The notes beneath the pieces are model-generated. The model ran no database searches, was not told the DNA's origin, and saw nothing but the letters and a program-made list of their open reading frames with translations. A program made the translations under genes and the position numbers. Below are positions 28,125 through 40,952 of a DNA stretch of 64,000 nucleotides, in pieces. Source of the DNA: Acidobacteriota bacterium (GTDB lineage Bacteria; Acidobacteriota; UBA4820; DSQY01); contig JBFMHB010000001.1 in assembly GCA_040752915.1 (NCBI GenBank), forward strand, positions 78,532 to 142,531, in the 5' to 3' direction. Position 1 is the first letter of the stretch; the number at the start of each line of letters is the position of its first letter.

Positions 28125-28353
28125 TGGCTCTCCTGAAGAATCTGTGCAGACCCCCGAGGGGAACCGCCGTCCGCAGCAGGCGAATGGCGACCTTCCGGCG
28201 CATTGAGGAAAAGTCGATCCGCAAGGCCCCGCCTCCATTGCGCCCTCCGCCCCGATGGCATACCCTTGCTCCTTGCCATCCTGGAGGGAGGGCGGGGGGC
28301 CGCGGAAATCAAGAACTCGGCGCCCGCGGGACTCCGAACCCGCCGGAGGAGAC

Positions 28354-31077
28354 ATGGAAGGTCTGGTCATCTTGCTCCTGGCGGCCGTTCTCCTGGGAGG
28401 CCCCGTGGTGGCCCTCACCCTTGCGATTGTGGCTCTGGTCCGAGGCAACCGGCTCCGACGCAACCTTCTCGATGCCCTGGATGACCAGCGCCGGGAATTG
28501 CAACACCTTCGAGCCCAGCTTGCGAAACTCCACTCCGATCTCGCGAGGAGCGATGGTCCCCCAGTTGAAAGGAGCCCCGGTCCCGCCTTGCCCCTTGAGG
28601 CTCCAACGGAACTCCCCCCGTTGGCGCCGGAGCCCCTGACCCAGACCGCTTCAGATTCGATTCAGGCTCCGACGCAACCGATTCCTGACCGGACCGCCCC
28701 ACCTGCTCCACCCGTCGAGCCGCCCACGGCCTCCAGCGCACCGCCTGGGGCCGGACCGCCTCCCCAACCACCCGTCCGACCCGCCATGGGCCTGGAGGAG
28801 AAACTGGGGGCCAGGCTTTTCGTGTGGGTGGGAGCCGTCGCTCTGGCCCTGGCCGGAACCCTGTTCGTGAAGTATTCCATCGACCAGGGCTGGATCAGCC
28901 CGCCCGTGCGCATCGCATTGGGGGTCCTCTTCGGCGCGGCCCTCCTGGTGACGGGGGAGCTTCTCCGAAAGGGCTACCGACTCCTCGCCCAGGCGTGCTC
29001 GGCGGCCGGCATCGCCGACCTCTTCGCGTGCTTCCTTGCGGCGAGCAACCTGTACCACCTCATTCCGAACCTGGTGGCCTTCGCCCTCATGGGACTCACG
29101 GCCGCCGTGGGCGTGGCGCTCTCTCTTCGGCAGGGGCCACTGGTGGCCGTGGTGGGGCTCATCGGCGGCTTTTTCACGCCCTACTGGCTCAGCACGGGTT
29201 CCCACCGTCCGGGCCCGCTCTTCGGCTACCTGCTTCTGCTCCAGGTAGGCCTCCTGGCCGTCACGCGCCTGCGCAGGTGGTGGCCCCTGGCGGGTCTCAC
29301 CCTCCTTGCGGGAATGGGCTGGGCGGCCCTCTGGCTCGCGTTCCCGTTCCGGCCCGAGGACGGCCTCTGGGTGGGACTTTTCCTCCTCGCAAGCGTGGGG
29401 GCTTTCCTGGCCAGCGGTTTCGCCGGTCGGGCCGCGGCGGCCTGGGGAGACGCGCGGATCCCCCTGGGCCTCGGGTGGGCCGCCCTGGGCTCCGGCCTCG
29501 GGCTCCTCGCCGCACTGGCGGGCCGTGGCGGATTCGGCACCACGGAGTGGGTCTTCCTGGGCATCCTCGGCGCCGCCTGCCTGGCCATGGGGCGCCTGGA
29601 CGAGGCCTTCGAGGGGACGGCCTGGCTCGCGGTGATCCTCACGACGATCTTGCTCGGTCTTTGGGGGGCCGGCCTGGCTCCCGACGCCCTGGGCCTTTAC
29701 CTCGCGACGGCGGGTTCGCTGGGCGCCCTCTTCGCCTTTGGGGCCTACGCTTGCCTGTGGGGCTCCGCGTCGCCCGGCCGATGGGCCGCCCTCTCGGCCC
29801 TCTCGGCGCTGGGCGCGTTTCTGATGGCATGGCGGACCCACCTGGGACTCGTCCATGGGGGCCATTGGGGTCCTCCGGCCCTTGTGATGGCTTTCCTTTT
29901 CCTCGCGGGCGCCGTTCCCCTGGCCTCCCGCCGGAACACCTTGAAGGGCGGCGAGGAGGCCCTGGCGGCCATGGCGGCGGCCGCGACGGCTTTCGTGAGC
30001 CTGGCCGTGCCTCTGGAACTCCATCGCGAGTGGATGGCGGTGGCCTGGGCTCTGGAGGTGGCGGCGCTGTGCTGGCTGTCCGAACGCCTTCGGGTGGGCG
30101 CCCTGGCCAAGCTGGCCTGGGCCCTCGCGGCTGGCGTCGCGGCTCGCCTCCTCCTCAACCCCTTCGTCCTCGCCTACCCCACGGGGTCCACTCCTGTGCT
30201 GAACTGGATCCTCTACGGCTACGGCTTGCCATTGCTGGCCTTCGCCGCGGGCGCCTGGTTCGTCCACCGCGACCGCAAGGCACTTTCGGAGGCCCTCCAG
30301 TGGGGGGCCCTGGCCTTCGGCGGGGCCCTTCTGGCCCTCGAAGTTCGCCACTATTTTCACCCAGGGCGCCTGGACTCACCCCGGGTGGACCTGGCCGAGT
30401 GGGGCGGTTGGGTCGTGGCATGGATGGCGCTGGGGCTTGGCCTCCTTGCGGCCTCCCGCCGCTGGCCCCTTCGGTCCCTGGACTGGGGCGGGCGCCTGCT
30501 CCTTCTCGCGGCTCTCGCCCTGGCGGCGTTGGGCCCGTGCCTCGTCGCCAATCCTGCCTGGACCCGCCACCCCGTTGGGGACACGCCGGTTTTCAACGCC
30601 CTTCTCTTCGTTTACGGGGTTCCGGCCCTGCTGGTCCTGCTCGGAGCGGCGGAACTCCGGAGCCGTGGCGAAGAGAGGATCTCGCGCGTTCTGGGGGCCG
30701 GAGGCCTCATCCTCCTCTTCTGCCTTCTGACCCTGGAAATCCGCCAGGGCTTCCGGGGCAGTCTGCTTCAGGCGGGCCGCGCCACCAACATGGAGAATTA
30801 CGCGTATTCGGCGGGATGGATCCTCTTCGGGCTGGTCCTCCTGGGGGCAGGCATCGCCCGGCGATCGGCGGCCTTCCGGTACGCATCCCTCGCCGTGATG
30901 ATTCTCACCATCGGAAAGATCTTCCTCTACGACCTCGCCCACCTGAAGGACACCCTGCTTCGCGCCCTCTCGTTCCTGGGGCTGGGGACGAGCCTGCTGC
31001 TGATCGCCTACCTTTACATGCGTTTCGTTTTCCGCCGGAGGGACGAATGCGAATCCGCCGCTTCGCGGGAGTCCTGA
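28354..31077 (+). CDS. DUF2339-family polytopic membrane protein (N-terminal TM + coiled coil + Pro-rich linker + >20 TM helices)
   Basis: Start taken at ATG 28354 (MEGLVILLLAAVLLGG) with a GGAGGA RBS. Coiled-coil LRRNLLDALDDQRRELQHLRAQLAKLHSDL, a Pro-rich spacer, then ~600 aa of repeated hydrophobic helices — the architecture typical of DUF2339. Confidence 0.75.
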   Translation: MEGLVILLLAAVLLGGPVVALTLAIVALVRGNRLRRNLLDALDDQRRELQHLRAQLAKLHSDLARSDGPPVERSPGPALPLEAPTELPPLAPEPLTQTASDSIQAPTQPIPDRTAPPAPPVEPPTASSAPPGAGPPPQPPVRPAMGLEEKLGARLFVWVGAVALALAGTLFVKYSIDQGWISPPVRIALGVLFGAALLVTGELLRKGYRLLAQACSAAGIADLFACFLAASNLYHLIPNLVAFALMGLTAAVGVALSLRQGPLVAVVGLIGGFFTPYWLSTGSHRPGPLFGYLLLLQVGLLAVTRLRRWWPLAGLTLLAGMGWAALWLAFPFRPEDGLWVGLFLLASVGAFLASGFAGRAAAAWGDARIPLGLGWAALGSGLGLLAALAGRGGFGTTEWVFLGILGAACLAMGRLDEAFEGTAWLAVILTTILLGLWGAGLAPDALGLYLATAGSLGALFAFGAYACLWGSASPGRWAALSALSALGAFLMAWRTHLGLVHGGHWGPPALVMAFLFLAGAVPLASRRNTLKGGEEALAAMAAAATAFVSLAVPLELHREWMAVAWALEVAALCWLSERLRVGALAKLAWALAAGVAARLLLNPFVLAYPTGSTPVLNWILYGYGLPLLAFAAGAWFVHRDRKALSEALQWGALAFGGALLALEVRHYFHPGRLDSPRVDLAEWGGWVVAWMALGLGLLAASRRWPLRSLDWGGRLLLLAALALAALGPCLVANPAWTRHPVGDTPVFNALLFVYGVPALLVLLGAAELRSRGEERISRVLGAGGLILLFCLLTLEIRQGFRGSLLQAGRATNMENYAYSAGWILFGLVLLGAGIARRSAAFRYASLAVMILTIGKIFLYDLAHLKDTLLRALSFLGLGTSLLLIAYLYMRFVFRRRDECESAASRES

Positions 31078-32963
31078 TCCTCGCGGTCCTTCCCCTGGCC
31101 GCCCAGGTTCCGCCTGGCCGATTTGAGCGCATCGCCCAGGCCCCTTCGGAGGGCTGGTACCGTGTCAATCTGGATCCCGCCACGCGGGGGCGCATGACCC
31201 CCGACGCCCGGGACTTGAGGATTGTGGACGCTTCGGGCGCCGAAGTGCCCTACCGGCTCCTTCTACCCCCGAAGCCAGCCGAAGCCATACCAGCCGCAGC
31301 GCGCGCTGTCCGGGAATCCCCGGATGGGTGGGAACTGGTCTTCGACCTCGGTGCCTCGACGCCTCCCCATCATGCCTTCCGTTTCGAGTTCGCCAACCGC
31401 GCGGCGGTTTCCGACTGCCGGCTGGAGTCGGGCCGAGACGGCGCATCCTGGCGCCTTCTGGCCCGGGGGGACCTTTTCCGCCTCGGCGAAGGTGAGGGCC
31501 TGTCGAGAACTTCTCTGGCCTACCCGGCCACCTCGGATCGCTACCTCCGCCTGATCTGGCCCAAGGGGGGAGACTACCCCGACGTCCGGCGCGCCGAAGC
31601 CCTTCCCGCGCCGCCTTCGCCCGCCACGATCCTCGAGTTCGCTCTGAGCCTGACCCACGAGAGCGATCTACCCGCCGGCCGCGTTTATCTCGTGAGCCTG
31701 CCGGGTACCGGCGCCGGCCTGAAGGGACTCCGCCTCGCGGCACACGGCGCCGGGGCCCTTTCCTACCGGCTCTGCGCCGTCCGTCAGGGCCGCTGGGAGA
31801 CCGTCGCCGAGGGGACGTTGACCGCCGATCCAAAGGGCGCGTGGCCCGATGTGGCCGTTGAGGAGGGCCCCTTCGAGAGCCCCGTGCTCCGGCTCGAGGT
31901 CGCCTCGGGGGTTCTTCCCTCGCCCTCCGTTGCGGCGGTTTGGGGTTCTTTTCAGGTTCCCTCGATCTTCTTCCATGCCGGTGCGCCCGGCGCCTACCGC
32001 TTCACGTACGGCAGCCTTGGCATGGCGCCGCCTCAGTACCCTTCTTTCGCGGTCCCGTCCCCCCCCGAGTCCGTACCCCTCCTGGTCTTGGGGCCCGAGC
32101 GCGATGGAGCGCCCGCAGGCCTGCCCGCCGCCCGGGCGGGCCTGGGTGCCGCCCTGCCCGAGGCCTCCTTCTCCACCGCCTGGCCCGTGAATCCCGGGCT
32201 GAGACCCGGGGAATTGGCCCGATTGGAGTTGCCCGGGGCCGTCTACGCCCCGGCCCGGACGGACCTCGGGGACCTGCGCCTGGAGTCGGGCGGGCGTCAG
32301 GTACCGTACCTGCTCCATGCGGCCGCCGAGCCGGTCTCCGTGTGGCGGGTCACCGGGCTCATCCCGAGCCCGGGCCGCATCCGGGGTGAAAGCGAAATCC
32401 TCCTCCCCGAGGTTCCCAAGGGTATGCACCTGACGGCCCTGGAACTGCGGACCTCCGCCTCGGCTTTCCACCGGCCCCTCGCCGTCCATTTTGTGGCCGA
32501 TGGAAGCAGGCCTGGTCTCGAATCCCCACCGGCCGTCCACCACGGCGACTGGTCTTGCGCGGGCGCCTCGGCCCTGCCCTGCCGGCTCGTCGTGCCCCTA
32601 TGGGGCGCCAGCCCCGGCGGAAAGATCCGTGTGGTCTTTCAGGACGGCGACAACCCGGCCCTTTCCTCGGTGGACGCGCTCCTGTGGCGCCGTGGACATA
32701 CACTCTTTTTTCTGGCGCCCGAGGGGCCCGCGCGCCTCCTGGCCGGCTCGCCGAACCTGCAGCCGCCCCGCTATGACCTGGCCTCCCTGGCCTCCCAGAT
32801 CCTCGCCATGCCCAGCCAGGCTGCCGACCTGGGTCCCGCCGAGGAAGGGGGCTCCCTGGCGGGCTCCCGGACGGTCCGGCTCGTCCTCGTCGGCGCCCTC
32901 ATCCTCTGCGGTGCGGTCCTCCTCCTCATCCTCGCCCGCGCCTTGAAAAGGCCCGAGGGTTGA
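31047..32963 (+). CDS. DUF3999-like exported protein with C-terminal membrane anchor
   Basis: In-frame ATG at 31047 (MRIRRFAGVLILAVLPLAAQ, signal peptide) overlapping the DUF2339 3' end by 31 nt. C-terminal TM helix VRLVLVGALILCGAVLLLILA. This gene-pairing with DUF2339 is the arrangement recalled for DUF3999. Confidence 0.65.
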   Translation: MRIRRFAGVLILAVLPLAAQVPPGRFERIAQAPSEGWYRVNLDPATRGRMTPDARDLRIVDASGAEVPYRLLLPPKPAEAIPAAARAVRESPDGWELVFDLGASTPPHHAFRFEFANRAAVSDCRLESGRDGASWRLLARGDLFRLGEGEGLSRTSLAYPATSDRYLRLIWPKGGDYPDVRRAEALPAPPSPATILEFALSLTHESDLPAGRVYLVSLPGTGAGLKGLRLAAHGAGALSYRLCAVRQGRWETVAEGTLTADPKGAWPDVAVEEGPFESPVLRLEVASGVLPSPSVAAVWGSFQVPSIFFHAGAPGAYRFTYGSLGMAPPQYPSFAVPSPPESVPLLVLGPERDGAPAGLPAARAGLGAALPEASFSTAWPVNPGLRPGELARLELPGAVYAPARTDLGDLRLESGGRQVPYLLHAAAEPVSVWRVTGLIPSPGRIRGESEILLPEVPKGMHLTALELRTSASAFHRPLAVHFVADGSRPGLESPPAVHHGDWSCAGASALPCRLVVPLWGASPGGKIRVVFQDGDNPALSSVDALLWRRGHTLFFLAPEGPARLLAGSPNLQPPRYDLASLASQILAMPSQAADLGPAEEGGSLAGSRTVRLVLVGALILCGAVLLLILARALKRPEG

Positions 32964-33125
32964 CGCGCTCTCAGCCCGCCGGTGCCGGGATCTGCCCACC
33001 CACGCGGCAAGTGGTTTCCTGTTTTGCTCTCCTCCGGAATGGCTGATTCTCTCGTTCCCTGTTTCCTTCACCTTGCATCCCCGCCTTCCTTGCCCTAGAC
33101 TCCCTCTCCCGTCGTGGAGCATGCC

Positions 33126-33473
33126 ATGGCCTGGTTTAACAAGACGCCGCCGCCCCCCCCCAGGACGGTGCTCGCCCCAACGGCCCTCCTGGAGGGAGAC
33201 CTGGTCACACGCTCCGAGGTGGAGGTCCACGGGCGAGTGGCCGGCACCCTCAAGACCGATTCGACCCTTACAGTGGGGCGGGAAGGCTCCTTGGAGGGTG
33301 AAGCCCAATGCTCCGCCCTGGAAGCGGCCGGTCGGTTGAAAGGCCAATTCGCCACGGCCGGGCTCTCCTCCTTCGGGGAGTCCGCACGCTTCGAGGGGGA
33401 CCTCTCGACCAGACGCCTAAGAATCGCGGCCGGCGCCGTGCTGAGGGGCCGCATCCGGGAGTCCCAGGCTTGA
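33126..33473 (+). CDS. Bactofilin (DUF583) family polymer-forming protein
   Basis: Beta-helical repeat pattern LLEGDLVTRSEVEVHGRVAGTLKTDSTLTVGREGSLEGEA...FEGDLSTRRLRIAAGAVLRGRI with regularly spaced G/V/L, matching bactofilin repeats. Confidence 0.6.
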   Translation: MAWFNKTPPPPPRTVLAPTALLEGDLVTRSEVEVHGRVAGTLKTDSTLTVGREGSLEGEAQCSALEAAGRLKGQFATAGLSSFGESARFEGDLSTRRLRIAAGAVLRGRIRESQA

Positions 33474-34117
33474 TTCTCTACGCCATCACCGACCGCCGGC
33501 TCGCCTTCTCCGAGGAGGGCCTCCTGGGTCAGGCCTCCCGCCTGCTGCGGTCGGGAGTGGACTGGCTCCAGATCCGGGAGAAGGACCTCCCCGACGGGGC
33601 CCTGTGCGCGGTCCTCGGCGCTCTCCGGTTCGAAGCCCTCCGGTTCGAGACGCGGCTGCTGGTCAACGGGCGTCCGGATCTGGCCCTTGCGGCGGGCGCC
33701 TCGGGCGTTCATCTCCCCGCCTCCGGCCTTCCCACGGACGAGGTTCGCCGGTTGTGTCCGCCTCCCATGTTCGTGGTCCGGTCCTGTCACTCCGTGAAGG
33801 AGGTGCGAACCGCGGCGGACCTGGGCGCCGACGCGGTCACCCTGGGTCCCGTTTTCGATACGCCCTCCAAGCGCGCCTTCGGAGCGCCGCTGGGCCTGGG
33901 AACGCTTGAAGAGGCGTGTCGGGCGGTCTCCATCCCCGTTCTCGCCATAGGAGGCGTTGGAATCCCTGACATCCCCCGGATTCGCGCCGCCGGCGCCGCC
34001 GGCCTGGCGGCCATCCGCCTCTTCGCCGAGACGCCCAACCCGTCGGCGACGGTGGCCGATATCCGGAGGCAGTGCCCTGATGGGCCCCCCGCTCCCCCAG
34101 GGCCTCGAATTTTTTGA
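33470..34117 (+). CDS. thiE: Thiamine-phosphate synthase
   Basis: TTG start overlapping the bactofilin stop (cTTGa). LYAITDRR, VDWLQIREKD, LLVNGRPDLALAAGASGVHL, AVTLGPVF.T.SK, and IPVLAIGGV are the canonical ThiE blocks. Confidence 0.85.
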   Translation: MILYAITDRRLAFSEEGLLGQASRLLRSGVDWLQIREKDLPDGALCAVLGALRFEALRFETRLLVNGRPDLALAAGASGVHLPASGLPTDEVRRLCPPPMFVVRSCHSVKEVRTAADLGADAVTLGPVFDTPSKRAFGAPLGLGTLEEACRAVSIPVLAIGGVGIPDIPRIRAAGAAGLAAIRLFAETPNPSATVADIRRQCPDGPPAPPGPRIF

Positions 34118-34187
34118 CGGGGGAGGCGTTCCATTTTAAATTGTTAGGCGCCGGGGACTCCCGGGCCCTTCGGCTGGAGGTGCCGTA

Positions 34188-34586
34188 ATGAAGGTCAAAC
34201 TGACCGTCGCCCTCATCATCGTGGCAGGCGCGGTGGGGCTCTTCTTTCTGTCCAACGCGGGAACGGGTAAGACCGTCTATTACTACAGTCCGACCCAGTA
34301 CATGGCGAACCCCGCCGTGCAATCCGACCGGCTCAAACTCAAAGGGATCATCGAACCCGGTAGCGTCCGTCTATCGGCGGACCGGCTCGACCTCTGGTTC
34401 GAGGTCTCGGACGGTGAGAGGAAGATCCCGGTTCATTACCGCGGGGCCGTCCCCGACGCCTTCAAGGAAGGTCTCGAGGTGGTGGTGGACGGCCGCATGA
34501 GCGGGAGCGGAACCTTCGAGGGGCGAGAGCTCATCGTCAAGTGTCCTTCGAAGTACGAATCCACAGACGGTCTTCCCAAGGCCTGA
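34188..34586 (+). CDS. ccmE: Cytochrome c-type biogenesis heme chaperone CcmE, CxxxY variant
   Basis: N-terminal TM anchor, OB-fold body (VYYYSPTQ..., LKGIIEPGSV..., LEVVVDGRM), and a C-terminal motif VKCPSKYES in which the canonical heme-binding His of HxxxY is replaced by Cys. Confidence 0.8.
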   Translation: MKVKLTVALIIVAGAVGLFFLSNAGTGKTVYYYSPTQYMANPAVQSDRLKLKGIIEPGSVRLSADRLDLWFEVSDGERKIPVHYRGAVPDAFKEGLEVVVDGRMSGSGTFEGRELIVKCPSKYESTDGLPKA

Positions 34587-34589
34587 CCC

Positions 34590-36662
34590 ATGGGGACCAT
34601 CGGGACTTACGCGCTCTTCATCGCCCTGGCCCTGGCCCTCTGGGGAGCCGTGGCGGCCTTCGTGGCCTATCGAACCAACGACCTTCGGTACCTCCGCAGC
34701 GCTGTGCGCTCCATCCACGGAATCACGGCCTTGTCCCTCCTGGCCGTGGCGGCGCTGTGGATCGCCCTCTTGAAAAACGACTTCACGATCAAGTACGTCT
34801 GGGAGTACTCCCGCTCCTCCCAGCCCATCATCTACAAGTTGTCCGCGCTCTGGGGGGGAATGAACGGGTCCATCCTCTTCTGGTGCGCGCTGCTGGCCGT
34901 TTTCTGCTCCTTGGCCGTGGTCCTGAACCGGACCAACAACTTGAGGCTGTTGCCCTTCACCAGCTTCGTGCTGCTCCTGACCCTTCTCTTTTTCCTCGTC
35001 CTCCTGAACTTCAAGACGAGCCCCTTTGAGCCCCTCATGGACTCCGAGGGCCTGGCCGTCAAGGCCTATGCCCCTGAAATGCTGGCCCGAATCGAGGGGA
35101 ACGGCCTCAACCCCCTCCTTCAGAACGTCTACATGGCCATCCACCCGCCCATGCTCTACCAGGGCTACGTGGGCTTCGCCATCCCCTTCGCCTTCATCCT
35201 GGGCGCGCTGGCCCACAGGGAGCGCAACACCTTCTGGATGCGGTCGGCCAGAAACTGGGCCATGTACTCGTGGCTCACTCTGGGCATCGGAATCCTCCTG
35301 GGCGGATACTGGGCCTACATCGAACTCGGGTGGGGAGGCTACTGGGCCTGGGATCCCGTGGAGAACGCCTCCTTCCTGCCCTGGGTGACGGGGACGGCCT
35401 TTCTTCACTCCTTCTTGATGCAGGAGAAACGCGGGATTTACCGGTTCTGGAACGTCTTCTTCATCATGGCCACCTTCCTGCTGTGCATCTACGGGACCTT
35501 CCTCACCCGCTCGGGCATCCTGCAATCGGTCCACGCCTTCGGACAGGAGGACCCGACGATCCCCTGGTACTTCAAGATCGGGAACATCTTCATCGCCTTC
35601 ATGCTGGGCATGCTGGCCCTCGGCGTGGTTCTCATCCTGAGAAGGCAGGGCCTTCTGAAAAGCGGGCAGAGGCTCGAATCCGCCGGGAGCCGCGAGAGCC
35701 TCTTCCTGTACGGGAACCTGCTCCTGGGCCTGATGACGTTGATCGTCCTTTTCGGCGTGACGAGCCCGATTTTCGTCCGGATGGTCACGGGCAAGGAGGT
35801 GAGCCACGGCCCCGAGTTTTACAACCCGAGGATCCTGCCGGTGGCCCTCGCCATTCTCCTCGTCATGGGCATCGCATCCATCGCCCCCTGGCGGCGCGGC
35901 GGCTGGGCGGGCTACCGCCGGCACCTTCTCTTTCCCTCCTTGGCCGGCGGCTCGGCCCTGGCCGTCTCGATCGCGGCCTTCCTATACGGCGGAGCCGCCT
36001 CCCGAGCGGACTTCGCCTCCCGGCCCCTCACCTACGCCTACCTCTTCGCCTGCATCGCGCTCTCTTTCTTTGTGGCCGCCATCCTGGTAGAGGAGTACAT
36101 CCGCTCGGTCAAGACATCCGTGGCCCACGGGCGGGCGACCATGCCAAGGGCCCTCCTTTCGCCCTTCCGCGACAACCCGCGTCGATACGGGGGATACCTC
36201 GTCCACCTGGGCATGGTCTGCCTCTTTCTCGGCGTGGCCTTTTCCGGGACGTTTCAAAAGGAGTACCAGGAGACCATGCGCCCCGGGGACGCCGTGCGCT
36301 TCGGGCCCTACACGGTCCGAATGGCGGGGCTCAACCATGACGATCTGAACGCCGACCTGACGAAGGTCAACGAGGCCCGGGTGTGGGCCGACCTTCACGT
36401 GTTCAAGGGGGACCGATTCGTGGCCCACCTGAGGCCCCAGCGGGTCTTCTACGCCGCGAACCCTCAGCAGCCCACCTACGAGGTCGCGATTCACTCCCGC
36501 CTCATGAACGACTTTTACACCCTCCTGGCGGGCTTCGACCCCAAGGACGGCACGGCCGTGATCGGGGCCTTCGTGAACCCCATGGTGGCATGGCTGTGGC
36601 TCGGCGGCCTGCTCGTCCTCATTGGCGGCACCACGGCCCTCGTGCCGATGAGGAGATACTGA
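34590..36662 (+). CDS. ccmF: Cytochrome c-type biogenesis protein CcmF (heme lyase subunit)
   Basis: 690 aa polytopic protein. WWD-domain GGYWAYIELGWGGYWAWDPVENASFLPW, with conserved His in the flanking TM helices. Confidence 0.9.
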   Translation: MGTIGTYALFIALALALWGAVAAFVAYRTNDLRYLRSAVRSIHGITALSLLAVAALWIALLKNDFTIKYVWEYSRSSQPIIYKLSALWGGMNGSILFWCALLAVFCSLAVVLNRTNNLRLLPFTSFVLLLTLLFFLVLLNFKTSPFEPLMDSEGLAVKAYAPEMLARIEGNGLNPLLQNVYMAIHPPMLYQGYVGFAIPFAFILGALAHRERNTFWMRSARNWAMYSWLTLGIGILLGGYWAYIELGWGGYWAWDPVENASFLPWVTGTAFLHSFLMQEKRGIYRFWNVFFIMATFLLCIYGTFLTRSGILQSVHAFGQEDPTIPWYFKIGNIFIAFMLGMLALGVVLILRRQGLLKSGQRLESAGSRESLFLYGNLLLGLMTLIVLFGVTSPIFVRMVTGKEVSHGPEFYNPRILPVALAILLVMGIASIAPWRRGGWAGYRRHLLFPSLAGGSALAVSIAAFLYGGAASRADFASRPLTYAYLFACIALSFFVAAILVEEYIRSVKTSVAHGRATMPRALLSPFRDNPRRYGGYLVHLGMVCLFLGVAFSGTFQKEYQETMRPGDAVRFGPYTVRMAGLNHDDLNADLTKVNEARVWADLHVFKGDRFVAHLRPQRVFYAANPQQPTYEVAIHSRLMNDFYTLLAGFDPKDGTAVIGAFVNPMVAWLWLGGLLVLIGGTTALVPMRRY

Positions 36663-36892
36663 TGGCGCCCCTTCTCGCGACCCTCGTCCTGGCCGTCGCC
36701 GCCTTCGTCTGGGTCCTTCGGCCCCTATTCGAGGAGGCGCAGGCGATTCCGCAGGAGCGGGCGGCCGGCCTTTTGGCCGACGCCGTGACACGGTCCGTCC
36801 AGGAACTGGAGACGGACCTTCGCCTCCAGAAGATCGAGCCCGCAGATTTGGACATGATCCAGGAACACTTGAAACGGGAATCCGCGTCTTGA
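36662..36892 (+). CDS. Small membrane-anchored protein, translationally coupled to ccmF (possible Ccm accessory)
   Basis: ATG 36662 overlaps the ccmF TGA. A single TM helix (LLATLVLAVAAFVWVL) followed by a charged helix. No Cys, so it is not a CcmH-type protein. Confidence 0.4.
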   Translation: MAPLLATLVLAVAAFVWVLRPLFEEAQAIPQERAAGLLADAVTRSVQELETDLRLQKIEPADLDMIQEHLKRESAS

Positions 36893-36901
36893 GGGGGGCC
36901 G

Positions 36902-37963
36902 ATGCGCGCTCACATCCGGTGGACGGGGAGGGGCAGCCTCGAGCTTCTCGACCAGAGGCTCCTGCCTTCCGAAGTCGTTTTCAGGGAATGTCGCACGGCC
37001 GCCGAGGTAGCAACCGCCATCCGTGACATGGTTGTGAGGGGCGCGCCCGCCATCGGAATCTCCGCCGCGTATGGCATGGCGCTGGCCGCCCGAGCGGCCA
37101 GCGTGTCCTGCGCGAACCGCCGCGACTTCCGGCGCCAGATGAACTCCGAGGCCGAGGTGCTGGCCTCCGCGCGGCCCACGGCGGTCAACCTTCGATGGGC
37201 CGTGGACCGCCTCCTCCGCCTGGCGACGGATCTCGCCAAGAGCGGCGCGGATCCAGAGGACGTGGCCGCCTCCGTGGAGGAGGAGGCCATCCAGATCCAT
37301 CGGGACGACGTCAACGCGTGCAAGTCCATCGGCAAGGTCGGCGCGGCCTTCGTGCCCAAGAAGGCTTCCATCCTCACCCACTGCAACGCCGGGGCACTGG
37401 CCACCGGCGGCTTCGGGACGGCGCTGGGCGTCATCCGCGCGGCTCGGGAGGCGGGCAAGGCTCCCCGGGTTTTCGCTGACGAGACTAGGCCCTTCCTCCA
37501 GGGAGCCCGTCTCACGGCCTGGGAGTTGATGGAGGACAACATCCCCGTGACCGTCATCTGCGAGTCCGCGGCGGCTTCCCTCCTGGCCTCCGGTAGGATC
37601 GACCTCGTCCTGGTGGGCGCCGACCGGATCGCGGCCAACGGCGACACCGCCAACAAGGTCGGGACTTACCCCTTGGCGGTCCTGGCCCATCGGCACGGCG
37701 TGCCCTTTTACGTGGCCGCCCCCCTGAGCACCTTCGATCCTGACCTGCCGGACGGCTCCGGAATTCCCATCGAATTGCGGCCCTCCCAGGAGATTCTCCG
37801 ATGGGGCGAACAGGCCGTTGCTCCTCCCGGAGCCGAGGCCTTCAACCCCGCCTTTGACGTGACCCCGCACGATCTTATCACGGCCCTGTTCACCGAGGCG
37901 GGGGCGGTAAAGCCCGTGGACGCCGGCACGGTGGGGGATCTCCTTGGCCGCCTGAGGCCATGA
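36902..37963 (+). CDS. mtnA: S-methyl-5-thioribose-1-phosphate isomerase (eIF-2B alpha/beta/delta family)
   Basis: RGAPAIGISAAYGMALA, THCNAGALAT, GADRIAANGDTANKVGTY. Confidence 0.85.
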   Translation: MRAHIRWTGRGSLELLDQRLLPSEVVFRECRTAAEVATAIRDMVVRGAPAIGISAAYGMALAARAASVSCANRRDFRRQMNSEAEVLASARPTAVNLRWAVDRLLRLATDLAKSGADPEDVAASVEEEAIQIHRDDVNACKSIGKVGAAFVPKKASILTHCNAGALATGGFGTALGVIRAAREAGKAPRVFADETRPFLQGARLTAWELMEDNIPVTVICESAAASLLASGRIDLVLVGADRIAANGDTANKVGTYPLAVLAHRHGVPFYVAAPLSTFDPDLPDGSGIPIELRPSQEILRWGEQAVAPPGAEAFNPAFDVTPHDLITALFTEAGAVKPVDAGTVGDLLGRLRP

Positions 37964-39003
37964 GCCTCATCCTCGGGATCGAGACTTCCTGCGACGACTC
38001 CTCGGCGGCCCTCCTGCACCGGGACGGCCGGGTGGTTTCGTGTCGCGTCGCGGGTCAGGACGAGGTGCACGCTCCTTATGGAGGCGTCGTTCCCGAACTG
38101 GCGAGCCGGGCGCATCTCCAGAAGCTCCCCGGAACGGTGGAGGGGGTGTTGGCCGACGCGGGATGCACCCTCGCCGACGTGGAGGAGATCGCCGTCTCGT
38201 GCGGGCCTGGACTCCTTGGCAGCCTCCTGGTGGGGGTGGCGTACGCCAATGCCCTCGGGTGGGCCAAGAACCTCCCGGTTCGAGGCGTAAACCACATCGA
38301 AGCGCACCTCCGGTCGCCGTGGATCGAGCGTCCGGATCTTCCCTATCCCGCCCTTGGCCTTGTGGTCTCCGGGGGGCACACCCATCTCTTTTGGTGCCGA
38401 ACCGCAAGCGAAATCCAGCGGATCTGCGCAACGCGCGACGACGCCGCGGGCGAGGCCCTGGACAAACTGGCCAAGCACCTCGGACTGCCCTACCCGGGAG
38501 GTCCGGTGATTGACCGCCTGGCTGAGCGCGGGAATCCCCGGGCCGTGCTCTTCCCCCTTCCGCGGATGTCCTCCGGAGACCCTCTGGACTTTTCCTTCTC
38601 GGGGCTCAAGTCGGCGGCTCTCCACTGGCTGAGGAGCCATGGGTACGGTCCACCTTTCGAGACGGACACTCATGCCCTCCCCGGATGGGAATACGACCTG
38701 CTGGCATCCTTCCAGAAGCGTGTCGTGGACCACCTGATCCAGAGGATGCGTGTGGCGGCCATCCGCAGAAAGCCCGCTTGCCTCACCATGGCGGGCGGGG
38801 TCGCCTGCAACCGCCTCCTTCGCCGCAGACTCCTGGCCCTCGGCGAGGAGCTGGGGGTTCCCGCGGCCTTCCCTTCTCCACGATACTGCACCGACAACGC
38901 GGCCATGGTGGCCTTCCGAGCGCTCGACGGGTGCGGACCAGCCCGACCGGGAGTGGCCCCACTGGACGCCTTTCCAACGGCTCACTGGACCCCCTCGGGT
39001 TGA
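37960..39003 (+). CDS. tsaD: tRNA N6-adenosine threonylcarbamoyltransferase TsaD
   Basis: ATGA overlap with mtnA. LILGIETSCDDSSAAL, GVNHIEAH, and VSGGHTHL are the Kae1/TsaD motifs. Confidence 0.9.
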   Translation: MSLILGIETSCDDSSAALLHRDGRVVSCRVAGQDEVHAPYGGVVPELASRAHLQKLPGTVEGVLADAGCTLADVEEIAVSCGPGLLGSLLVGVAYANALGWAKNLPVRGVNHIEAHLRSPWIERPDLPYPALGLVVSGGHTHLFWCRTASEIQRICATRDDAAGEALDKLAKHLGLPYPGGPVIDRLAERGNPRAVLFPLPRMSSGDPLDFSFSGLKSAALHWLRSHGYGPPFETDTHALPGWEYDLLASFQKRVVDHLIQRMRVAAIRRKPACLTMAGGVACNRLLRRRLLALGEELGVPAAFPSPRYCTDNAAMVAFRALDGCGPARPGVAPLDAFPTAHWTPSG

Positions 39004-39041
39004 CTTCGAAGCCGTTTTCGGGCAAACTGCCCCGGCTGGAT

Positions 39042-39117
39042 GGGCCATTAGCTCAACCGGTAGAGCAGGGGACTCTTAATCCCAAGGTTGTAGGTTCGAG
39101 TCCTACATGGCCCACCA
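39042..39117 (+). tRNA. tRNA-Lys (anticodon CTT)
   Basis: Manually folded: acceptor GGGCCAT/ATGGCCC, D-arm GCTC-AACCGGTA-GAGC, anticodon loop CTCTTAA (U33-CUU-A37), T-arm GTAGG-TTCGAGT-CCTAC, discriminator A73, encoded CCA. Confidence 0.85.
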
Positions 39118-39339
39118 CCCATCCCCCCTTCACCAACCGGAATCGTGAGCGAAGGCGCCAGGATCACGGCGCCTTCGCCGCCTCTTTGCGCAAGCGGCGG
39201 CTTCGGTCGCACATCGGTGGGTCCATCCGGCGAGCCCCGGTCCACGCCTCCGGTCCCGCCCGCCGTCCCGAGGGCGCATCGGCTTGCGGCAGGCGCCCCG
39301 CCCGTTCTAAAATGAGAGGCCTATGACGGGGTTGAGCCC

Positions 39340-39837
39340 ATGAAGTCGGCATGGAATCTGCTCTGGAGGTACACACTCGGGGCGGCCGTGTCGGTTCTTC
39401 TTTCGCTCCTGCTCCTGCTCGGTTTCTTCCGGCCCTTTCGAGTGTCCGGTCAGAGCATGGCGCCCACCCTCGGAGACCGGGACCTGATCCTCGTGGACCG
39501 TTGGGCCTTTCGCCTGGGGGGGCCCCAGCGAGGCGACCTCGTCATTCTGACGGACCCTTCCGGAAGCGGGTTCCTCGTCAAGCGCGTGGCCGGGCTTCCG
39601 GGGGATCACCCCGAGGCGCTTCCCGCCTCCGCCGGGGGAGTCCCCGACGGATTCCTCTATTGCGTCGGAGACAATGCCGCGGAAAGCCTGGACAGCCGGC
39701 ACCTGGGGCCATTTCCCATGGACCGGGTTTATGGGCGGGTTCTCGTCCGCATTCCGGAGCGCCATGCCGCCCGCGTCACCACAGGGGGCCTCGCCCAGGC
39801 CATCGGGCCCGCGGCCCCTCGGAAAGAGCCGCCATGA
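39340..39837 (+). CDS. lepB: Signal peptidase I (S26 family)
   Basis: N-terminal TM, Ser box VSGQSMAPTL, Lys box VKRVAGLPGD, and a GDN box (CVGDNAAESLDSRHLGP). Confidence 0.85.
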   Translation: MKSAWNLLWRYTLGAAVSVLLSLLLLLGFFRPFRVSGQSMAPTLGDRDLILVDRWAFRLGGPQRGDLVILTDPSGSGFLVKRVAGLPGDHPEALPASAGGVPDGFLYCVGDNAAESLDSRHLGPFPMDRVYGRVLVRIPERHAARVTTGGLAQAIGPAAPRKEPP

Positions 39838-40952
39838 GCCTCGGAGCTGTTCCCCTCCAAGGCGACTACTCCCAGCTCGGCCTCCCCGAGATCCTGGACT
39901 TTCTCAAGACCACCGGGAAGACCGGCGTCCTCCTCGTCCGGAACGGGACCGTGACGAAGACCCTTCACTTCAAGAACGGCGTCGTCACCTTCGCCACCTC
40001 CAATGTGCCCGAAGAACGCTTCGGGGACATGCTCCTGCGCCAAGGCCGGATCAGCCAGGCCCAATTCGACGAGGCCAGCCGCCACGTGACCCGAGGCAAG
40101 CGGCTGGGCAAGATTCTCGTGGAAATGAAAGCGCTCACCCCCAAGGACCTCTGGAACGAGGTCCGGCGCCAGGTGCAGGAGATCGCCTTTTCCATCCTCC
40201 GTTGGGATTCGGGGTCGTTCCAGTTTTTCGAAGGGGAGGAGAAGGCGGGCGAGAACATCACGACGGCCATTTCCGTCCCGGAGCTTCTCCTGGAAGGTCT
40301 CCGACGCATCGAGGACCCGGCTCTTTTCGAACGCTACATGCCCAACAAGGACGTGGTCTTCGAGCGGGTGCTTCCGGCCCACCGCCCCCAGGGCCTCCAC
40401 TTCGAGGAATACGAGAAGCACGTCTTCCGCCTGGTGGACGGGGCACGCAGCGTCCAGGAAGTGTGCGACCTGAGCGAAATCGGGGAGTTCGAGACGCTCA
40501 AGACACTGTATATCTTCTTCTCCATCGGGTTCCTCCACGTCAAGGGCCGGAAGGACCGGTTCGAGGAGGAGCGCCGCGAGTTGAAAGAACTGGGCGGCCT
40601 CATCCGCAATTACAACGAAATGTTCTCCTTCCTGTACCACTACCTTCTGCGTGAAGTCGGGCCCATCGCGGAGAACATCCTGGAGAAGTACCTCGGACGC
40701 CTCAAGACCGTTCAACCGGAGGTTTTCGGGAGAGTCACCATCCGGAGCAACGGATCCCTCTCCGAGGAACGGCTGATCGAGAACCTGCGGGCCCTTCAAG
40801 GGGATCGCCAGGCCCTCCTGGTGCAGTCCCTCAACGAGTTCCTCTACAGCGTGCTCCTGGCCATTCGAAGGACCCTCGGGCCGGACCACGAGACCCGGGT
40901 CCTGGAGACCCTCCGCCACACGCGAAAAGACCTTTTCCGTGAGCCCTCCTGA
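39834..40952 (+). CDS. DUF4388-domain protein
   Basis: ATGA overlap with lepB. N-terminal DUF4388-like block GDYSQLGLPEILDFLKTTGKTGVLLVRNGTVTKTLHFKNGVVTFATSN, followed by ~300 aa of alpha-helical sequence with no enzymatic motif. Confidence 0.6.
   Translation: MSLGAVPLQGDYSQLGLPEILDFLKTTGKTGVLLVRNGTVTKTLHFKNGVVTFATSNVPEERFGDMLLRQGRISQAQFDEASRHVTRGKRLGKILVEMKALTPKDLWNEVRRQVQEIAFSILRWDSGSFQFFEGEEKAGENITTAISVPELLLEGLRRIEDPALFERYMPNKDVVFERVLPAHRPQGLHFEEYEKHVFRLVDGARSVQEVCDLSEIGEFETLKTLYIFFSIGFLHVKGRKDRFEEERRELKELGGLIRNYNEMFSFLYHYLLREVGPIAENILEKYLGRLKTVQPEVFGRVTIRSNGSLSEERLIENLRALQGDRQALLVQSLNEFLYSVLLAIRRTLGPDHETRVLETLRHTRKDLFREPS

Follow-up and report, generated by a model that had tools for sequence, protein, structure and literature searches.

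A Cys-type ccmE-ccmF pair coupled to a putative CcmI-1-like small open reading frame in an Acidobacteriota genome

Which part of a cytochrome c maturation pathway is encoded where ccmE and ccmF stand by themselves, and what is specified by the small open reading frame (ORF) that follows them? This question is raised by a stretch of 64,000 nucleotides from the genome of a member of the Acidobacteriota (assembly GCA_040752915.1, contig JBFMHB010000001.1, positions 78,532 to 142,531 of the forward strand), which is referred to as the window in the following. Here, ccmE, ccmF and an ORF for a protein of 76 amino acids (aa) form a close-packed set of three genes on the plus strand. With a probability of roughly two in three, the locus represents that half of a System I* pathway which delivers and ligates heme in Thermoanaerobaculia-type Acidobacteriota, and the small ORF encodes a CcmI-1-like subunit of the CcmF synthase. 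The term System I* denotes the variant in which Cys replaces the heme-binding His of CcmE; a review (PMC3601427) credits its description to Allen et al. (2006).

CcmE, CcmF and the Cys in place of His

In the CcmE protein from the window, an N-terminal membrane anchor (about residues 5-22; hydrophobic N-terminus LTVALIIVAGAVGLFFL) precedes an OB-fold domain, and the chain closes with a short C-terminal tail. It matches PF03100 over residues 30-125 with 99.2 bits (E=1.8e-28, cut-off 24.6), and its matches in the PDB, with E values down to 3e-11, comprise CcmE from Escherichia coli (8ce8_E, 1sr3_A), Desulfovibrio vulgaris (2kct_A) and Shewanella (1j6q_A). These matches identify the protein as a CcmE and dispose of the alternative that it is an unrelated OB-fold protein. 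Eight NCBIfam models for CcmE, which are built on His-type proteins, were matched at 45-87 bits, all under their equivalog cut-offs of 126-310. The gene is preceded by a GGAGG Shine-Dalgarno sequence 7 nt ahead of its ATG.

The C-terminal tail reads LIVKCPSKYES and does not contain a His at any position. Phmmer alignments with 8ce8_E and 1sr3_A place Cys119 and Tyr123 on H130 and Y134 of E. coli CcmE, the phmmer alignment with 2kct places the Cys on the KCP of D. vulgaris CcmE, and the register of C119 and Y123 is identical in a MAFFT alignment of 28 homologues with E. coli CcmE. The original prediction, made from the DNA sequence alone, had read the tail in the same way and had proposed a Cys instead of the His that binds heme; both statements hold, as the Cys does not fall outside the heme-binding position and the tail offers no conserved His elsewhere. 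When genomes of species representatives were scanned with a profile of Cys-type CcmE, 285 loci were found to encode a CcmE relative, 80 of which were kept and examined. The nearest of these (46-95% identity) stem from Acidobacteriota labelled Thermoanaerobaculia, Thermoanaerobaculaceae or Aminicenantes, and the farther ones from Dehalococcoidia/Chloroflexota, Desulfovibrio, Myxococcota and others. KC[PA]SKY is present in all 80 loci, and the Cys, Pro, Ser and Tyr of CPSKY are invariant in 29 of 29 homologues; the Cys is therefore neither a chance substitution nor a sequencing error.

CPSKY is the majority motif of Cys-type CcmE, and delta-proteobacteria, Chloroflexi and Firmicutes are named as carriers (PMC3601427, a review from 2011). 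In Desulfovibrio desulfuricans and Methanosarcina acetivorans, the Cys of the CxxxY motif binds heme and is required (PMC9084895, PMC3601427). By analogy, heme would be carried covalently on Cys119 of the window protein. In the original prediction, the CxxxY type was regarded as a rarer variant of archaea and some sulfate reducers. It is indeed known from archaea and Desulfovibrio, but its distribution is wider, and it has been documented better, than this implied (PMC3601427; 285 genomes in our scan). Cys-type CcmE as such is thus already established as part of System I* and the window protein is an additional member, which simply widens the host range of a known system to a phylum not named in these surveys.

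CcmF from the window matches PF01578 with 116 bits and PF16327 with 154 bits, both over the respective cut-offs. Its residues H185, H273, H315 and H539 align with H173, H261, H303 and H491 of E. coli CcmF, of which H173 and H303 form the periplasmic and H261 and H491 the transmembrane pair. Judged by its sequence, CcmF is complete with WWD domain, four His residues and C-terminal domain. Identity to the E. coli proteins amounts to 32% for CcmE and 30% for CcmF (tblastn). The NCBIfam model for CcmF/NrfE, TIGR00353, is matched with 353.8 bits and the NrfE subfamily model TIGR03145, the best match in this database, with 355 bits. Both scores fall under the cut-offs (569 and 927, respectively), which we put down to the divergence of this CcmF from the proteobacterial sequences on which the models were trained. 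The ranking of TIGR03145 may be read as a sign that ccmE-ccmF constitute a second, NrfE-like lyase set for an unusual heme motif beside a canonical His-type ccm operon elsewhere, and our sequence data, which cover the window and a short stretch past its right end, would be compatible with such an operon. However, the score is not only far under the cut-off but also equal to that for the generic CcmF/NrfE model, Nrf lyase sets do not have a CcmE of their own, no nrfA, nrfF, nrfG or cytochrome gene is found nearby and the conserved housekeeping context (thiE, mtnA, tsaD) recurs in many species. A specialized lyase of the NrfE type is thus very improbable, and we rejected it on the grounds of score, dedicated CcmE and lack of neighbouring nrf genes.

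The small ORF downstream of ccmF

Conservation of the small ORF and its coupling to ccmF were computed directly. The ATG overlaps the ccmF stop codon just as originally predicted (position 36662, the A of TGA). The ORF has been called as a gene in several independent public assemblies, where the product is named hypothetical, and about 20 related species have an orthologue directly behind ccmF. The small protein has the NCBI entries MEW5763431.1 and MFZ5983845.1 (locus tag ACOYXN_05720) and is also encoded in the Logan assembly of SRR7539573. Wherever the sequence of a related Acidobacteriota/Aminicenantes locus covers the ccmF 3' end and the region downstream, as well as in the Acidobacteria locus L049, the start of the orthologue lies within -7 to +2 nt relative to the ccmF stop. 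The ratio of nonsynonymous to synonymous substitution rates (dN/dS, NG86) is 0.076 in comparison with the closest orthologue (dS 0.48) and lies mostly between 0.13 and 0.43 in more distant computable pairs. The small ORF is under purifying selection; its conservation and the dN/dS values rule out a spurious ORF. The possibility of a split-off C-terminus of CcmF was likewise rejected, since the transmembrane (TM) helix of the small protein is predicted by homology to be oriented N-out and the end of CcmF is cytoplasmic.

In the family alignment, a hydrophobic N-terminal helix ends with W/F-V-L-x-P-L-F and is followed further on by S-V-x-E-L-x-T-D-L-x-L-x-K-I-x-x-x-D-L, with the small ORF from the window itself carrying ELETDLxLxKIxxxDL. 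In the AlphaFold2 model (alignment of 12 sequences, mean pLDDT 80.5), residues 2-23 form a helix, which a loop connects to a helical hairpin made up of residues 35-54 and 60-75. A hidden Markov model (HMM) derived from 12 orthologues finds a match in 25 of the 29 loci that cover the ccmF 3' end and picks up members on which it was not trained (L025, L029, L031). A single-sequence phmmer search against 1.84 billion representatives returned 11 clusters, all with proteins of 76-79 aa and none bridging to longer proteins, a word-indexed search returned two clusters only, and Pfam did not yield a significant family for the small ORF.

In three loci, the ORF after ccmF is shortened to 33-59 aa (L029:12461-12565, L031:9047-9226, L090:4556-4657) and retains just the TM helix and a (W/Y)-V/I-(L/F)-x-P-(F/Y)-F-E motif. 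To judge from these sequences, the conserved core of the post-ccmF ORF would be the TM segment, and the hairpin would be dispensable.

What could a small membrane protein coupled to CcmF be? In Rhodobacter, CcmI is made up of CcmI-1, two TM helices with a cytoplasmic loop, and CcmI-2, a periplasmic TPR segment, which have distinct functions in the CcmFHI complex (PMC3884852, PMC7676999). In System I*, a CcmI raises cytochrome production and is not required (PMC3601427). In NCBIfam, the small protein scores best with TIGR03142, the CcmI N-terminal domain of 118 positions: its residues 5-72 align with profile positions 4-71 at 20.1 bits and an E value of 6e-4. The same model is the top NCBIfam match for 10 of 14 orthologues scanned singly, always at about profile positions 4-71, and the orthologue from L049 (101 aa) is the only one that passes the cut-off of 29.3 bits, if only just (29.5 bits, E=7.5e-7). 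In addition, the HMM of the small ORF matches an ORF directly 3' of a CcmH-family gene in L035, L041, L042 and L072. The position after ccmH is the usual place of ccmI. The small protein from the window is not a full CcmI: it ends at position 71 of the 118 in TIGR03142, its single hydrophobic helix (residues 2-23) is not joined by the second TM helix that flanks the cytoplasmic loop in CcmI, and a Pfam scan of its 76 aa gave no match to a TPR. At most, it corresponds to a CcmI-1-like module of first helix and loop, and from its sequence it may be envisaged as a CcmF synthase subunit of a 'CcmI-1-only' kind. The 76-aa ORF had been put forward as a candidate accessory subunit, and this proposal has gained ground through conservation, purifying selection, coupling to ccmF and resemblance to the CcmI N-terminal module.

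The relatives located directly after a CcmH-like gene are longer (L035:5835-6443, L042:13091-13678, L072:13007-13669, L041:12880-13425). They comprise 181-196 aa with a TM helix and a CcmI-like motif and show weak matches to TIGR03142 (E 0.0014-0.018). Proteins of the L035 type end with a zinc ribbon (CPSCG...CSKCG), whereas in that of L041 an acidic stretch leads up to a second TM helix. The zinc ribbon speaks for a cytoplasmic location of everything that follows the first TM helix, in line with what has been published for CcmI.

Several points weigh against our reading of the locus. The score of the window copy stays under the TIGR03142 cut-off given above. An hhalign comparison of the small-ORF family with E. 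coli CcmH, to which a CcmI part is fused, did not detect similarity, so this fused part is evidently devoid of the N-terminal segment in question. No small ORF follows ccmF in the System I* loci of Desulfovibrio, and it is therefore not universal in the variant system. The hairpin may represent a generic 'TM + ELxxDxxxGxI' module and is then no proof of common descent with CcmI. Interaction with CcmF and topology of the small protein are themselves predictions. Finally, a search with CcmC from L049 as the query gave 4,828 matches, and among the 120 matches listed none could be assigned to the genome of the window; the candidates P0105 and P0132 belong to other organisms, in which the ccmE-F-small-ABC(D) loci are complete.

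There is a resemblance between the hairpin motif ELxxDLxLxKIxxxDL and the 'GxIxxEE' helical hairpin of the GvpG/SHOCT type, and weak Pfam matches to GvpG (gas vesicle protein G), which also speak against a CcmI-like identity, were obtained for 5 of the 14 orthologues (best E=0.003). It is conceivable, then, that the small ORF encodes a CcmF-associated membrane protein with a SHOCT/GvpG-like hairpin that was recruited independently, and that the match to TIGR03142 reflects shared architecture. Besides the GvpG matches, this alternative draws on the score of the window copy, on the negative result with E. coli CcmH and on the presence of a motif 'L..E...L[ED].D...G.I....[DEY]' in L045 and L094, where an unrelated periplasmic protein carries it behind its C-terminal TM helix. 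On the other hand, twice as many orthologues match TIGR03142 as match GvpG, with E values of 7.5e-7 versus 0.003. The TIGR03142 match is always collinear from the TM helix through the hairpin, one orthologue exceeds the curated cut-off and relatives occupy the canonical position of ccmI after ccmH. We consider independent recruitment the main alternative, though an unlikely one, and adhere to a CcmI-1-like subunit.

The remaining ccm genes and gene order in related genomes

Pfam annotation of the whole window and a few kb past its right end did not reveal CcmA, B, C, D, G or H. A tblastn search of the window with the eight E. coli Ccm proteins recovered CcmE, CcmF and generic ABC ATPases only, and a motif count gave a single WWD and zero LRCxxC. 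The original prediction that ccmE and ccmF are found locally without ccmABCD and ccmH thus applies to the full 64 kb. Absence from the window is no statement about the genome, and split ccm loci are common; we infer that CcmABC(D) for heme loading is encoded elsewhere. CXXCH is not present in any window ORF of at least 60 aa in any frame, and it follows that maturation substrates are not encoded within these 64 kb.

The arrangement of ccmE, ccmF and small ORF, first noted as non-canonical, is real and kept in about 20 related Acidobacteriota species. Thermoanaerobaculia-type loci have the order ccmE-ccmF-small ORF-mtnA-like, with no ccmABC within 10 kb. Other organisms combine the genes differently. 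In Desulfovibrio (L034), the order is ccmE-F-A-B-C-D followed by a gene for a TM + TPR protein, and ccmC-ccmE is found in Dehalococcoidia. The Acidobacteria locus L049 has ccmE-F-small ORF-A-B-C, L090 (GC 33%) has ccmE-F-33 aa-A-B-C-49 aa and L094 (GC 63%) has ccmE-F-95 aa-386 aa-A-B-C-47 aa. In all three, ccmABC and a CcmD-like ORF reside downstream of the small ORF, and in L090 and L094 a short TM ORF with a Y/W-V/I-L/F-x-P motif lies directly 3' of ccmF.

These loci bear on the question whether the small ORF is a displaced ccmD, i.e. encodes the small subunit with one TM segment through which holo-CcmE is set free from CcmABC. Size and architecture, with one TM helix and a charged tail, are CcmD-like and ccmD was not seen in the window. 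Still, PF04995 is not matched at E values up to 1 by any of the 14 orthologues, the ORF is coupled to ccmF and not to ccmC, and L090 and L094 contain a separate CcmD-like ORF of 47-49 aa after ccmC in addition to the small ORF after ccmF. An identity as CcmD is hardly credible and was rejected in view of the missing PF04995 match and the separate CcmD-like ORFs after ccmC in L034, L090 and L094.

In L090, the order of genes is PatA_N ... ccmE-F-33aa-A-B-C-49aa-thiE, and in the window it is thiE-ccmE-F-small ORF-mtnA-tsaD-lepB-PatA_N. The thiE and PatA_N neighbours are common to both and therefore suggest that ccmABCD moved away from this position, by relocation or excision, in the lineage of the window. 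In the extreme, the locus could be a decaying remnant in which, after loss of ccmABCD, neither ccmEF nor the small ORF has kept its function. The absence of ccmABCD from the window would fit this idea, as would the neighbours shared with L090, which suggest that ccmABCD once adjoined the small ORF and were then removed. However, all three ORFs are intact and all catalytic residues are kept, the small ORF is under purifying selection and the arrangement persists in about 20 species down to a CcmE identity of 46%. A remnant is therefore next to inconceivable, and we hold to a functional delivery and ligation half of System I*.

According to the same review, System I* was found by Goddard et al. 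(2010) to work without CcmH, CcmG or His (PMC3601427). CcmH is still present in about one third of System I* bacteria, and bioinformatic analyses have not found compensatory features in System I* (PMC3601427). Among our loci with Cys-type CcmE, CcmH-family genes are located directly 3' of ccmF in L035:5343-5834, L042:12578-13069, L072:12531-13064, L041:12394-12879 and L051:4244-4729, where the CcmE motif is KCASKY or KCPSKY. The two of these genes that were scanned, from L035 and L041, match PF03918 with 63-64 bits. The CcmH-like redox motif is non-canonical: proteins of the L035 type have a single Cys in ELRCPSxxYSQPL as compared with LRCxxC, and the motif of the L041 type is LMCDCGCGDVLVNCTCD. 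CcmH alongside Cys-type CcmE is mentioned in the review (PMC3601427); we have not seen the altered CcmH Cys motif described.

A further conserved gene occurs between the small or CcmI-like ORF and ccmA in L094:2454-3614, L045:4527-5372, L042:13703-15211 and L037:13196-13885. Its product features a signal/TM segment, a beta-rich periplasmic domain with a faint match to CarboxypepD_reg and a C-terminal TM helix, which in L094 and L045 is followed by a cytoplasmic 'L..E...L[ED].D...G.I' motif. The window does not contain this gene.

Gene identities and motif positions for the window were computed directly and are collected in Table 1. Housekeeping genes surround the locus, with DUF2339, DUF3999, bactofilin and thiE genes upstream and an IF-2B/MtnA-family gene, tsaD and genes for signal peptidase, PatA_N, miaA and hfq downstream. 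Positions 28255-32963 are taken up by the gene for a large membrane protein with DUF2339, about 760-940 aa in length according to which start codon is used, and by an overlapping DUF3999 gene (638 aa) that follows it; this pair, upstream of the bactofilin-thiE-ccmE block, is kept in related contigs. The candidate promoter listed in the table is the only sigma-70-like match in the region 33000-39500, for which shuffled sequences give 0.5 matches. Possibly, a transcription unit ccmE-ccmF-small ORF(-mtnA-tsaD) starts from this site.

Table 1. Features of the ccmE-ccmF locus, with positions given in the numbering of the window
Feature	Position	Strand	Remarks
thiE	33308-34117		
Candidate promoter	34114..34142	+	TTGACG-17-TAAATT; within the 70-bp thiE/ccmE gap; consensus match only
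ccmE	34188..34586	+	System I*-type heme chaperone, 132 aa; PF03100
CPSKY motif	34542..34556	+	Cys119...Tyr123 in place of HxxxY; predicted covalent heme site
Cys119 codon	34542-34544	+	TGT
Tyr123 codon	34554-34556	+	TAC
ccmF	34590..36662	+	Holocytochrome c synthase / heme-handling protein, 690 aa; PF01578, PF16327
WWD motif	35331-35354	+	WGGYWAWD, residue 248
Conserved CcmF His codons	35142, 35406, 35532, 36204	+	H185, H273, H315 and H539, respectively
Shine-Dalgarno sequence	36650..36655	+	GAGGAG; inside the ccmF 3' end, 6 nt 5' of the small-ORF ATG
Small ORF ('mini-CcmI')	36662..36892	+	76 aa; ATG shares last base (A) of ccmF TGA, 1 nt overlap
PatA_N gene	39834-40952		

Proposed mode of action and comparison with known systems

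How might the proteins work together? CcmABC(D), encoded elsewhere, would load heme onto Cys119 of the membrane-anchored periplasmic CcmE, with Tyr123 as the likely iron ligand. Holo-CcmE would then dock on CcmF, where the WWD domain and the two periplasmic His residues could hold the incoming heme and the two transmembrane His residues could ligate the b-heme of CcmF itself. CcmF would take over heme from CcmE and attach it to CXXCH apocytochromes. The 76-aa protein is envisaged to bind CcmF in the membrane, with its N-terminus out and its helical hairpin in the cytoplasm. It may stabilize or assemble the synthase and thus fill the role that CcmI-1 plays in the CcmFHI complex of Rhodobacter, without the TPR chaperone that binds apocytochromes.

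One may go further and speculate that a synthase operating without CcmH has the 76-aa protein as its obligate third subunit. The membrane/cytoplasmic segment of CcmI would then be the core partner of CcmF kept in evolution, the TPR chaperone domain and CcmH would be dispensable additions and the hairpin module would serve as a so far unrecognised docking element of System I* that faces the cytoplasm. We regard this extension as tentative and rather doubtful. The 'TM + ELxxDxxxGxI hairpin' also occurs in other System I* loci, where it is situated downstream of ccmH, joined to zinc ribbons or part of a second accessory protein. The novelty is modest and resides in a conserved, hitherto unannotated CcmI-1-like mini-protein coupled to ccmF. 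Such a protein would offer a natural minimal system for testing the function of the CcmI membrane segment in CcmH-less synthases, and the annotation as 'hypothetical protein' would be corrected in many Acidobacteriota genomes.

With the canonical E. coli system (ccmABCDEFGH; 8CE8, 1SR3), the window shares folds and families of CcmE and CcmF, the WWD motif, the four His residues and the Tyr four residues past the heme-binding position in CcmE. It differs by the exchange of His130 for Cys, by an operon that is not contiguous and by the lack of an adjacent gene for CcmG or CcmH. The System I* loci of D. desulfuricans and D. vulgaris (PMC3601427, 2KCT) resemble the window in that CcmE carries KCPSKY, ccmF directly follows ccmE and the locus does not contain CcmH or CcmG. 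In Desulfovibrio, however, ccmA overlaps the ccmF stop, ccmABCD come directly next and a CcmI-like gene for a TM + TPR protein is situated after ccmD (L034), whereas ccmABCD are not part of the locus in the window and the sole CcmI-like element is the 76-aa fragment of the N-terminal type without TPR.

CcmABCEF from M. acetivorans (PMC9084895) likewise includes a CxxxY-type CcmE, the Cys of which is required for heme binding in the archaeon. A further likeness is that M. acetivorans has no recognised CcmH or CcmI and that its ccm genes are dispersed over several loci (PMC9084895). Its CcmF is split into CcmF1 and CcmF2, in contrast to the single protein of 690 aa in the window, and archaea have been reported to be devoid of a CcmI-like protein, whereas the window contains the CcmI-1-like ORF coupled to ccmF. 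As regards CcmI (CycH) from Rhodobacter capsulatus and Pseudomonas aeruginosa, the full-length proteins comprise several hundred aa, while the small protein makes do with 76 aa and has neither a second TM helix nor TPR. What they appear to have in common, judging from the predicted features of the small protein, is a TM helix at the N-terminus and, behind it, a cytoplasmic segment that is helical and charged, and in either case the gene adjoins those for the synthase.

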